Assembly: GCA_964645355.1 (NCBI GenBank)
Contig: CAZXZU010000003.1
Span: 1-58,800, forward strand
Reading direction: 5' to 3'
Origin: an uncultured Heliomicrobium sp.
Lineage (GTDB): Bacteria; Acidobacteriota; Blastocatellia; RBC074
DNA: 58,800 bases
Part shown: one piece after another, positions 37,723 to 40,700 of the stretch
Layout: every line of letters starts with the position of its first letter
How positions within the stretch are numbered: position 1 is the first letter of the stretch
Translations under genes and position numbers: made by a program
The notes under the pieces: generated by a model
Told to the model about the DNA's origin: nothing
Databases searched by the model: none
What the model saw: only the letters and a program-made list of their open reading frames with translations

Positions 37723-40700
37723 ATGAACAAACGAAAGTTATCACTGATCGTCGTCTTCATTTTCGCGTCCGTCGTCTTTAATTTAAGCATTTGGGGTTTG
37801 AGCGAATGGCAGCCGTACGCACAGGCGCAACGATCCTCAAAAATTGATTTTGCCCGCGACATTCAACCCATCTTCGCGGCTTCGTGTACGGGCTGCCACG
37901 GCGAAAAGAAACAAGCGGCAGGTTTGCGGCTGGATTCCAAAAAAGTCGCGCTGAGCAAAGTCATCACTCCAGGCAAAGCAGATCAAAGCGAGCTTTATCG
38001 TCGCGTGGCCGGCTTGAGCGAGCAAGCGCGAATGCCAATGGGCGGCAAACCGATTTCTGCCGAACAAATCGCGTTAATTAAAACCTGGATTGAACAAGGC
38101 GCTGACTGGCCGGAAGAATCCGCAATCCGCAATCCGCAATCCGCAATCCAGCAGCATTGGGCTTTCATCACTCCCATCAGACCCATAACTCCCAAAGTAA
38201 CCAATTCAGTCTGGATCAAAAATCCAATTGATGCTTTTGTCCTGGCTCGACTGGAAAAAGAAAAGCTGATGCCTTCACCCGAAGCCGACCGCGTGACGTT
38301 GATTCGCCGCCTGAGTCTGGATTTGATCGGCTTGCCGCCTACGCCGGAAGAAGTTGACGCTTTCCTGGCCGACCAATCGCCACGGGCTTATGAAAAATTG
38401 GTTGATCGTTTGTTGGCTTCGCCGCATTACGGCGAACGCTGGGGGCGGCATTGGCTGGACGTGGCGCGTTACGCCGATTCGGACGGTTACGAAAAAGACA
38501 AACAACGCGCCGTATGGTTTTACCGCGACTGGGTAATCAACGCGATGAACCGCGACCTGCCTTTCGATCAATTCATCATCCAGCAAATTGCCGGTGACCT
38601 GCTGCCAAACCCAACACAGGATCAAATCGTAGCCACTGGTTTTTTGAGAAACTCTATGATTAACGAAGAGGGCGGCATCGAACCCGAACAGTTCCGCATG
38701 GAAGCGATGTTCGACCGCATGGACGCCATTGGCAAAGGCGTGCTGGGGCTGACCATTCAATGCGCTCAATGCCACAACCACAAATTCGATCCGATCAAAC
38801 AGGAAGAGTATTACAAACTGTTCGCCTTCCTGAACAATTCCAACGAAGCCAACATCGCCGTTTACACTCCCGAAGAACAAATCAAACGCGCGGAGATTTT
38901 CCGCCGCACGCGCGAAATCGAAGCCGAGCTGCAACACAAAACCTCTGACTGGAAAGAGCGGATGGCTGCGTGGGGAGCTTTGGCCAAAGCGAATCAGCCG
39001 GAATGGACAATCGTAAAACCCGAAGTTGATGACATTTCAAACGGCGGCCAAAAGTATCTGCCTATGAAAGACGGCTCGTTTTTGGCTGCGGGTTATGCGC
39101 CCACCAAACATCGCGTGAAGATGATTTGGAAAACCGACGTGAAAAACATCGCGGCTTTCAGGCTGGAATTGCTGAACGATCCGAACCTGCCGCTGGGCGG
39201 CCCCGGACGTACGACAAAAGGTTTGGGCGCGTTGACCGAATTTGAAGTTGAAGCTGCTCCGGCTTCTCACCAAGACAAAGGCGAACCGACGAAAATCACA
39301 AAGATCAAACTGGTCAAAGCCACTGCCGACTTCAATCAACCGGAACGCGATTTGGAGCCGATCTTTTTCGACAAATCCAACCGCAAACGCATCACCGGCC
39401 CGATTGAATTCGCCATTGACGGCAAAGACGAAACCGCCTGGGGCATTGATGCCGGAGCAGGTCAACGCAACGTTCCGCGCAAAGCCGTCTTCGTCGCCGA
39501 ACAGCCGATCAACGGCGTCGCAGAAAATTGGGGCGAAGCCGTCATCACTTTTTACCTGAAGCAAAATCACGGCGGTTGGAATTCCGACGACAACCAGAAC
39601 AACAATCTTGGCCGCATGCGGCTATCCGTGACGACAAGCAAAGACGCCGTCGCCGACCCGCTGCCAGCCAACGTGCGCGAATTGCTTTCGATTCCCGCCA
39701 GCCAACGAACCGAGCAACAAACTCAAACGGTTTTCGGTTACTGGCGAACGACCGTGCCTGAATTCAAAGCCGCGAACGATCAGATCGCAGAGTTATGGAA
39801 ACAACATCCCGAAGGTTCTTCGCAATTGATTTACAACGAACGCAGCGAAATGCGTCCGACCTTCACGCTGAAACGCGGCGACTTTCTGAAACCGGACAAA
39901 GAGATTCAACCGGGAGTTCCGGCGTTCTTGCATCAACTTCCGGCTTCTACCAATGGCGCTCCTCTCAACCGGCTGACGTTTGCCAAATGGCTGGTTGATC
40001 GCCAATCGCCAACCACGGCGCGCGCAGCGGTCAACCGAATCTGGCAAAGTTATTTCGGCACTGGGCTGCTGGCGACTTCTGAAGATTTCGGCAAGCAAGC
40101 CGACGCGCCTTCGCATCCTGAGTTGATGGATTGGCTGGCGGTGGAACTGATGGAAGGCGGTGTCAGTACCGCGCGCGTTAGCAAGCGGACTGGTTCTGGC
40201 GAAAGTTCCTTGCGACGTGACTCGCTCCCTACCGGTCGCGGTACTGACTCGGCGGCGTGGAGTTTGAAAAACATTCACCGACTGATCGTGACTTCGGCGA
40301 CTTACCGGCAATCGTCAAAAGTCACGCCTGAATTGCAGCAGCGCGACGCTTTCAATCGTTTGTTGGCGCGCGGCGCACGGCTCAGAGTTGAAGGCGAAAT
40401 CGTGCGCGACATAGCTCTGGCCGCCAGCGGATTGCTGAGTCCCAAGATGGGCGGCGCTGCGGTTTATCCGCCTTCGCCTGATTTCCTTTACCTGCCTCCG
40501 GCCAGTTACGGCCCCAAACCGTGGCACGAAGAAAAAGGCGAAAACCGTTACCGCCGAGCCGTTTACACGTTTCGTTATCGCTCGGTTCCCTTTCCCGTGC
40601 TGCAAACTTTCGACACGCCGAACGCTGACATTTCCTGCGTTCGGCGCGCGCGGTCGAACACTCCGCTGCAAGCGTTGACCACGCTGAATGAAACTCTGTT

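Follow-up and report, generated by a model that had tools for sequence, protein, structure and literature searches.

An in-frame copy of a dispersed hairpin repeat, probably tolerated as a loop, at an insertion hot spot in a PSD1 (DUF1553) protein of a Blastocatellia-type acidobacterium

According to the summaries in PMC2229807 and PMC3733652, Rickettsia palindromic elements (RPEs; Ogata et al. 2000) are 105-146 bp long, specific to Rickettsia and bounded by 12-bp terminal inverted repeats with a CGTC terminus; in the account of PMC2229807, they lie in frame in 19 protein genes, and an insert-bearing gmk is translated into an active product. Repetitive extragenic palindromes (REPs) have been found within open reading frames (ORFs) of several species, where dimers or groups of repeats amount to 20-30 amino acids; many intragenic REPs are N-terminal, the insertions may fall in flexible linkers or loops, and in recB of two Xanthomonas species different REPs occupy about the same site (Di Nocera et al. 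2013, PMC3733652). Here we analyze a palindromic repeat copy of 87 nt (positions 40162-40248) that lies in frame in the gene of a PSCyt1/PSCyt2 (DUF1549)/PSD1 (DUF1553) protein of an uncultured Blastocatellia-type acidobacterium. The DNA is a stretch of 58.8 kb from contig CAZXZU010000003.1, hereafter the window, which is also the part of the host genome that our analysis covers. A first-pass annotation of this DNA had described an in-frame palindromic element resembling RPEs that is either tolerated as a loop or disrupts the gene. Our results indicate that a repeat copy most probably inserted long ago, in frame, into a turn of PSD1 and is tolerated there as a disordered loop; the same turn has received repeats of several other kinds in related bacteria.

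The palindromic nature of the 87 nt, as claimed in the first-pass annotation, is borne out by several features. The element ends in a perfect 12-nt inverted repeat (GTCAGTACCGCG / CGCGGTACTGAC), and this terminal 12-mer, with at most one mismatch, occurs eight times in the window against 0.14 expected, a 57-fold enrichment. A profile hidden Markov model (HMM) built from 82-nt family members covers positions 40163-40247 end to end (E=1.8e-12), and the right arm matches two intergenic copies (55646-55728 and 58476-58559), both of which have perfect 27-bp stems, without a single difference over 27-29 nt. A sister subfamily, represented by a clean hairpin at 27445-27514, supplies the left arm (GTACCGCGCGCGTTAGCAAGCGG), which makes the copy chimeric; the label "family A" given to it earlier thus fits the right arm only, the left arm being of the "B" subfamily. 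The two arms are only ~81% complementary, the stability of the copy does not stand out from that of shuffled sequence (z=-0.96), and its minimum-energy fold pairs the left arm with the spacer stretch 40189-40222. An Rfam scan of the whole window returned one tRNA alone and no match at the element, and a terminator and promoter scan around the element gave no signal at 40162-40248 and nothing terminator-like.

The element begins on the first base of a codon and spans 29 codons, four of its six frames lack stop codons, and the ORF of 1097 codons is intact, which agrees with the earlier description of an in-frame insert. Since the ORF stays open through an insert of this length and frame, the element would be transcribed and translated together with the gene; the protein around it reads HPELMDWLAVELMEGG - 29 element residues - SAAWSLKNIHRLIVTSATYRQSS. 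The boundaries of insert and repeat coincide well, if not perfectly. In 123 further copies the family consensus reaches ~4 nt further on each side (CGRR/TCAG...CTGA/YYCG) with covariation, which extends the footprint of the element to ~40159-40251, or 31 codons, while the window (E-GG...SAA-W) has gained a net 32 codons, not 29, over empty orthologues (E-KG-W). The two sets of boundaries hence agree within 1-3 codons.

We aligned the 120 closest orthologues (66-100% identity; Blastocatellia or Acidobacteriota where named), of which 34 have a contiguous block (..ELME-KG-WSLK..). Furthermore, the compact form M(E/D)xGWSLK occurs in 58 of the 74 readable genome loci, including nearly all of those labelled as Bryobacterales, Planctomycetota or Verrucomicrobiota. 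As outgroups carry the compact form, it is the ancestral one, and the proposal that the block is contiguous in relatives and that the 29 residues are a lineage-specific indel is upheld by the compact motif outside the Blastocatellia-like group. At the DNA level, the empty site reads GAA AAA GGA TGG in locus L002. In an orthologue of 85% identity (L001), the site, the frame and the 87-nt chimeric element are all as in the window, down to the mismatched arm pair, and in L207 the left flank GAAGGCGGT is kept and followed by a 24-nt remnant GTCAGTAATGCGCGCGGAACTTCG, the element having undergone an in-frame internal deletion of 66 nt. The insertion must therefore predate the divergence of these lineages. 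Altogether, the mismatched arms, the diverged spacer and the internal deletion in one lineage suggest an old insertion that has been decaying since.

Comparison of the window with L001 also indicates what selection acts on. Outside the element, the two genes share 87% of their amino acids but 61% of third codon positions, as expected under purifying selection. Inside the element this pattern is reversed (62% of amino acids and 86% of third positions), indicating that the nucleotides of the arms, and not the peptide, are conserved: 49 of 53 arm nucleotides match against 21 of 34 in the spacer, and at third codon positions the arms agree in 17 of 18 cases, compared with 61% gene-wide (p=0.002).

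An AlphaFold2 model built on the 120-sequence alignment (mean predicted local distance difference test score, pLDDT, 76.7; predicted template modelling score 0.75) places the insert in a loop, as had been suggested. Residues 814-842, which correspond exactly to the 29 element codons, are coil with pLDDT<50, and they lie between helices at residues 799-811 and 848-856. The model thus supports the view that the element forms an unstructured extra loop which the protein appears to tolerate.

What the first-pass annotation missed, although it read the insert correctly, is that the site is a hot spot, and that the gene holds a second repeat-derived segment (38117-38148). At least five extra residues (median 22, maximum 55) are present at this junction in 85 of the 120 orthologues, while indels at any other internal site are confined to four sequences or fewer. 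Translated DNA repeats of six kinds or more make up these inserts. The present palindrome family occurs in the same frame (VSTASGSERV...NPLATARGTD) and, in protein P0049, in another frame (SVPRAVAS...RSLPLAVL); further inserts derive from a second palindrome (RYRTGSGSDRV...NPVATAPGSVP), from heptamer arrays of the AATCCGC type (IADFGLRIAD / NPQSAIRNPQS) and the CGAACTG type (SSQFAVRSSQ / TANREPRTAN), and from GDGATGR and SNLKSQI types. For L003-L007, L009, L038 and L208 the inserts are repeats at the DNA level too; several further copies of the inserts of the window, of L001 and of the AATCCGC type (L005/L007) exist in the fetched loci, and those of L003 and L038 have one weak match each. In P0049 the palindrome is nested in a heptamer array, and the copy in L109 is nested as well. 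Within a clade of 82-90% identity, the states of the insert are patchy and include the ancestral EKG form, pointing to several independent gains, replacements and deletions; the underlying orthologue tree is a neighbour-joining sketch, read without a formal count of events. Along the whole protein, repeat-derived sequence occurs in many orthologues at only two internal sites, residues ~132-139 and 812-845, both of which are predicted to be disordered.

With this in mind, we propose that a copy of a dispersed hairpin repeat landed in the DNA for the short turn between two helices of PSD1, and that transcription and translation of the gene include the insert, so that the protein gains ~32 residues as a disordered surface loop. 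The hot spot would mainly reflect how few places in this protein can take up extra residues without harm, and a first dispensable insert would then enlarge the neutral target for later repeats. As to mobility, the family may have spread as single-stranded hairpin DNA through a Y1 transposase (RAYT/IS200-like; RAYT, REP-associated tyrosine transposase) acting in trans, a suggestion that we make tentatively and that is perhaps rather doubtful.

Several observations weigh against this explanation. Translation through the element is something we infer, and the arms are better conserved between window and L001 than neutral decay of a dead insert predicts, which calls for gene conversion by other genomic copies, to which we attribute it, or else for some function at the sequence level. 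Disordered stretches at residues 907-936 and 951-980 of the model carry no inserts in the 120-orthologue alignment, so that disorder alone does not explain the use of the one site. As regards kinship with REPs, A-type arms (CCGGTAGGGAGCG) and the metagenome type that dominates (GCGGTAGCGAGCG) both contain a GTAG motif, which reads GTTAG in the left arm of the present copy; the motif is internal to the arms, overlaps a short palindrome there and is paired with CTAC in the opposite arm. Finally, no RAYT gene flanked by arms of the family was found in 856 kb of element-bearing metagenome DNA or among the window ORFs scanned.

The most serious alternative is that insertion is targeted, the DNA of the site or a single-stranded structure in it being recognized by the machinery that moves hairpins, so that different families home there. 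The concentration of inserts at one site in 85 of 120 orthologues against at most four at any other would be expected in that case, as would the patchy presence of at least six repeat types in a clade of 82-90% identity that keeps the EKG form, the common left junction GAA GGC of palindromic inserts in distant clades (L208, L004, L006 and the window), the palindrome in another frame in P0049, and the position of the family at the center of other palindromes far above chance, with at least six complementary flank bases in 25 of 123 copies. Yet the empty-site DNA has no evident hairpin, and no motif common to it and other insertion sites was seen; the exact junctions vary by 1-2 codons with the type of repeat (E/..KG-W, EPS..KP-W, EG..A-W), nesting in an earlier dispensable insert yields the same pattern, and there is survivorship bias, as genes broken by out-of-frame insertions elsewhere go unsampled. 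We thus rate targeting as somewhat unlikely and favour a permissive site, although the data do not decide between the two. The broader idea that this helix-turn-helix junction is an actively targeted or positively selected "landing pad", with several unrelated hairpin-repeat families (REPIN-like palindromes and heptamer-array hairpins) homing to a single codon boundary of the conserved gene across the class, seems to us clearly unlikely.

The insert might instead be functional, either as a loop selected for variable length or sequence in an exported protein, or through arms that act as a DNA or RNA signal, for instance in protein binding, RNA processing or translational pausing. Conservation of the arms at synonymous sites (17 of 18 against 61%, p=0.002) next to a freely varying spacer, retention of the frame over substantial divergence and the presence of some insert in most Blastocatellia-like orthologues would fit such a role. 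It is improbable, however, given that the peptide is poorly conserved in comparison with the gene (62% against 87% amino-acid identity), that the inserts of orthologues show no sequence relationship and vary in length between 5 and 55 residues, and that any insert is lacking from 34 of the 120 close orthologues as well as from most genome loci that fall outside the Blastocatellia-like group; moreover, the hairpin of this copy is degraded (z=-0.96), the scans found neither a terminator-like signal nor an Rfam match at the element, most of the element was deleted in L207, and gene conversion by many genomic copies can account for the conserved arms. A pseudogene, or a gene functionally disrupted by the insertion, which is the second possibility raised in the first-pass annotation, is very improbable. 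While the insert does split the most conserved PSD1 block and the Pfam match falls into two parts, the 1097-codon ORF is intact, L001 shares the insertion under the purifying selection seen in 87% amino-acid against 61% third-position identity, all 85 orthologues with inserts at the site are full-length, and the insert is modelled as a loop between intact helices. That an ordinary lineage-specific loop extension merely resembles a repeat by chance is hardly credible at all: short length variants of the same loop do occur in Planctomycetota, but their extra residues are not repeat-like, and chance would have to produce a right arm identical over 27-29 nt to intergenic copies, the profile match of E=1.8e-12 and the 57-fold enriched terminus.

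We thus retain the tolerated in-frame insertion as the explanation and turn to the family to which the repeat belongs. Public metagenome contigs were scanned for TCAGTACCGCG-N45-75-CGCGGTACTGA, which gave at least 120 contigs, with 127 elements among the matches listed; the repeat is abundant in Blastocatellia-type soil Acidobacteriota. The lengths of these 127 elements have modes at 67 and 82-83 nt, and the dominant arm among the matches listed is TCAGTACCGCGAGCGGTAGCGAGCG. In the doublet layout, two inverted arms of ~26 nt surround a spacer of ~31 nt; each arm holds TACCG-N4-CGGTA, with an internal palindrome of only 5-6 bp, and stem positions show compensatory substitutions. Of the 127 copies, 10 lie in frames free of stop codons for 60 codons or more to either side, compared with 54% of random positions on the same contigs; antisense or arginine-rich artefacts and elements located before the true start codon account for most of the ten. 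A target-site duplication would show as an excess of direct repeats, and in 123 metagenome copies direct repeats of 2-8 nt were not overrepresented at any offset from 0 to 6; flanks tend to be complementary, with at least six complementary bases in 25 of these 123. The GGCG flanks in the window were considered as a target-site duplication and rejected, because the site before insertion would then have been out of frame and L001 does not conserve them. A search with the translated consensus peptide returned only ORFs of 34-100 amino acids, all but one without a Pfam domain; as it drew on 155 candidates, it is uninformative on the rate of in-frame insertion. In the searchable literature, neither this repeat family nor palindromic repeats of Blastocatellia came to light.

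The surroundings of single metagenome copies are also of interest. In eight loci (L144, L099, L200, L095, L114, L205, L093 and L153) the element is the core of a composite repeat of ~200 nt with long inverted flanks of its own (ATTGCTCGCGACATTGAnAGGTTAAC...GCGCCGAA [element] TTCGGCG...), and in L109, L131 and L157 it lies at the exact center of unrelated palindromes. One copy (L137, 5221-5290), the sole one of the 127 listed that resembles a real in-frame insertion in another protein, lies in an ORF of 752 codons, flanked on either side by repeat-like sequence that resembles a beta-propeller (SVPRSVASLTGSGASLAPPRAVL).

The occurrence as single arms and doublets, the compensatory stems, the lack of target-site duplications and the mostly intergenic location point to the anatomy of REPs and of REP doublets forming hairpins (REPINs) and not to a miniature inverted-repeat transposable element (MITE) derived from an insertion sequence (IS). 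Judged by its sequence, the family would hence be a REP-doublet or REPIN-like, small non-coding hairpin-forming dispersed repeat, and its membership in a GTAG-REP/RAYT system is unproven. Ten window ORFs in the vicinity of repeat copies and of the host gene were scanned, and none encodes a Y1_Tnp domain or a transposase. Neither the window nor the loci showed a full-length IS with such termini, though no systematic search for one was made. A Y1_Tnp gene near the orthologue in L002 was considered as the transposase of the family and rejected, as it is flanked by a different repeat; tblastn with its protein against the 856 kb of element-bearing loci found L196 alone, 2 kb from an element. The repeat in question, of 54 nt (..GGCAGGTCGTTTTACGGCCTGC..), forms an inverted pair in the window at 47865-48092 and flanks, in several copies, this 150-aa Y1_Tnp (IS200/RAYT-like) gene of L002 (10611-11514). 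Together, the 54-nt repeat and the Y1_Tnp gene constitute a second, separate system of the REP/RAYT type in this lineage.

The coordinates of the features are collected in Table 1.

Table 1. Features of the host gene, of the inserted element and of the other family copies in the window.
Feature	Coordinates	Strand	Details
Host gene, PSCyt1 / PSCyt2 (DUF1549) / PSD1 (DUF1553) protein	37723..41016	+	protein P0001, 1097 aa
Second repeat-derived in-frame segment of host gene	38117..38148	+	perfect tandem, ~4.5 units of AATCCGC (EESAIRNPQSAIQ)
Codons of helix preceding the loop	40117..40155	+	residues 799-811, HPELMDWLAVELM; AlphaFold2, confident
Whole indel relative to compact orthologues	40156..40257	+	34 codons (GG...SAA) replacing 2 codons (K/R/N/S)(G/N)
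Palindromic repeat copy	40162..40248	+	87 nt, 29 codons in frame; nhmmer E=1.8e-12, full-length model match
Left arm	40162..40188	+	GTCAGTACCGCGCGCGTTAGCAAGCGG; "B" subfamily, nearest to hairpin at 27445-27514
Spacer/loop	40189..40222	+	34 nt; holds degenerate remnant like B-type right arm (CCTTGCGACGTG)
Right arm	40223..40248	+	CGCTCCCTACCGGTCGCGGTACTGAC; "A" subfamily, identical to intergenic copies
Codons of helix following the loop	40264..40290	+	residues 848-856, LKNIHRLIV; AlphaFold2, confident
Partial copy (single arm), in frame in FG-GAP/ASPIC ORF 22663-24483(-)	23104..23142	-	encodes 11 residues
B-subfamily hairpin, in frame in esterase ORF 25967-27664(-)	27445..27514	-	z=-7.6; encodes 25 residues
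Partial copy (single arm and part of spacer), between convergent GNAT and BrkB genes	48681..48744		profile
Intergenic full-length family copy	55646..55728	not assigned	perfect 27-bp stem, z=-9.4; profile and fold
Intergenic full-length family copy	58476..58559	not assigned	z=-8.5; profile and fold

The host gene has the full PSCyt1, PSCyt2 (DUF1549) and PSD1 (DUF1553) architecture, with Pfam matches of 1.3e-10, 1.2e-93 and 1.3e-86, respectively, the last one being broken into two stretches. Its most likely start in the ORF 37654..41016(+) is the ATG at 37723; the upstream GTG at 37654 would give 1120 aa. A DUF1501 gene is located nearby (45682-47103). The AATCCGC tandem encodes SAIRNPQSAI in the disordered linker between PSCyt1 and PSCyt2 (residues 132-139, pLDDT<50 in the AlphaFold2 model), and at this position orthologues have the same peptide or other heptamer-derived peptides (SQISNSKSQI, GVTGGKGDGAKS). 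A 7-nt unit in coding DNA could in principle give frameshift switching; its copy number looks fixed. Heptamer arrays have a further arrangement in L005 (12380-12412 and 12548-12581) and L007 (12401-12434 and 12565-12604), where an ATTGCGG array at the hot spot is accompanied ~100 nt downstream by its reverse complement AATCCGC; the pairs form a long-range inverted repeat that brackets the conserved WSLK..TYRQSS codons, and both arrays are in frame.

The profile HMM finds the family at exactly six places in the window, among them single or partial arms (23104-23142 and 48681-48744) and inverted doublets (starting at 40162, 55646 and 58476). Three of the six copies lie in frame within recognizable genes, for PSD1, an FG-GAP/ASPIC protein and a BD-FAE esterase. 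A paralogue of the FG-GAP/UnbV_ASPIC protein in L004 has an 11-residue gap exactly at the arm, which would thus be a putative insertion. The esterase hairpin sits directly after the signal peptide of a tandem BD-FAE/Abhydrolase_3 protein; the L007 and L001 orthologues lack it, and L003 retains a remnant (DRYRS). The partial copy at 48681-48744 overlaps the final codons and the stop of the GNAT gene (48194-48715), and the syntenic intergenic region in L003 is without it and 29 nt shorter. The window has other intergenic hairpins as well (4344-4434, 24374-24470, 25868-25957, 36109-36288 and 57998-58094), whose arms are arrays with a period of 7-8 nt, of units such as GACAGGATT and AAAGGCA; they are the same kind of element as fills the PSD1 hot spot in many orthologues.

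These findings extend in-frame palindromic repeats to abundant uncultured soil Acidobacteriota and bring to light an undescribed repeat superfamily on at least 120 metagenome contigs. One loop that has been filled, emptied and refilled with various repeats in dozens of lineages amounts to a natural experiment on how far proteins tolerate and recruit selfish DNA, which could also test whether elements choose their targets. In practical terms, such insertions explain split Pfam domain matches in these genomes and account for many short "hypothetical proteins" without Pfam domain that match the translated repeat (motifs STASGSER and LATARGT). If targeting or selection were true, the capture of repeats would regularly supply new loop sequence, as a bacterial equivalent of exonisation; targeting could alternatively mean a structure-specific insertion mechanism that prefers the centers of palindromes.

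Among described systems, RPEs resemble the present family in being small palindromes with ~12-bp terminal inverted repeats and a long stem-loop, which here take the form of perfect 12-nt ends and of 27-bp stems in the intergenic copies. Both are intergenic and also lie in frame in conserved protein genes, to which they add a tolerated peptide; here the ORF is preserved in the PSD1 gene, and two more in-frame copies exist in the window. The present copy, however, is 87 nt long, its host is a Blastocatellia-type acidobacterium, judging by the names of orthologue records, and its termini read (G/A)TCAGTACC and not CGTC; the family spans 67-87 nt, is GC-rich with an internal GTAG, and differs from RPEs in sequence. 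The re-use of one orthologous site by several repeat families, as seen here, is not a described feature of RPEs. With size, taxon and terminus differing, the element is not an RPE, and the resemblance noted in the first-pass annotation holds as a functional analogy but not as membership.

REPs of the GTAG/CGTC superfamilies (PMC3733652) and REPINs (Bertels and Rainey 2011, PMC3116915) share more with the family: they occur as singlets and as inverted doublets within a larger hairpin, are mainly extragenic, make no target-site duplication, form subfamilies with compensatory stem changes and have a minority of copies in frame within ORFs. Unlike in REPs, GTAG is not an unpaired terminal tag here, and the 26-nt arms have an internal palindrome of only 5-6 bp. 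Bacterial MITEs with in-frame fusions (the 107-bp form of Correia/NEMIS, ERIC, YPAL and Nezha; PMC2229807, PMC10969869) likewise have terminal inverted repeats, sizes of ~70-300 bp, stable stem-loop transcripts, open frames and in-frame fusions to host genes; the present family differs from classical MITEs, which derive from IS with the same terminal repeats and often have TA as target-site duplication, in lacking such a duplication. Altogether, the element would seem to work like RPEs and intragenic REPs, an already described phenomenon, so that the family and the host group are what is new. To this the locus adds the conservation of the arm nucleotides, the in-frame position of three of six window copies, and the re-use of one site across a bacterial class, which, with 85 of 120 orthologues and at least six repeat types, exceeds the recB example known for REPs.

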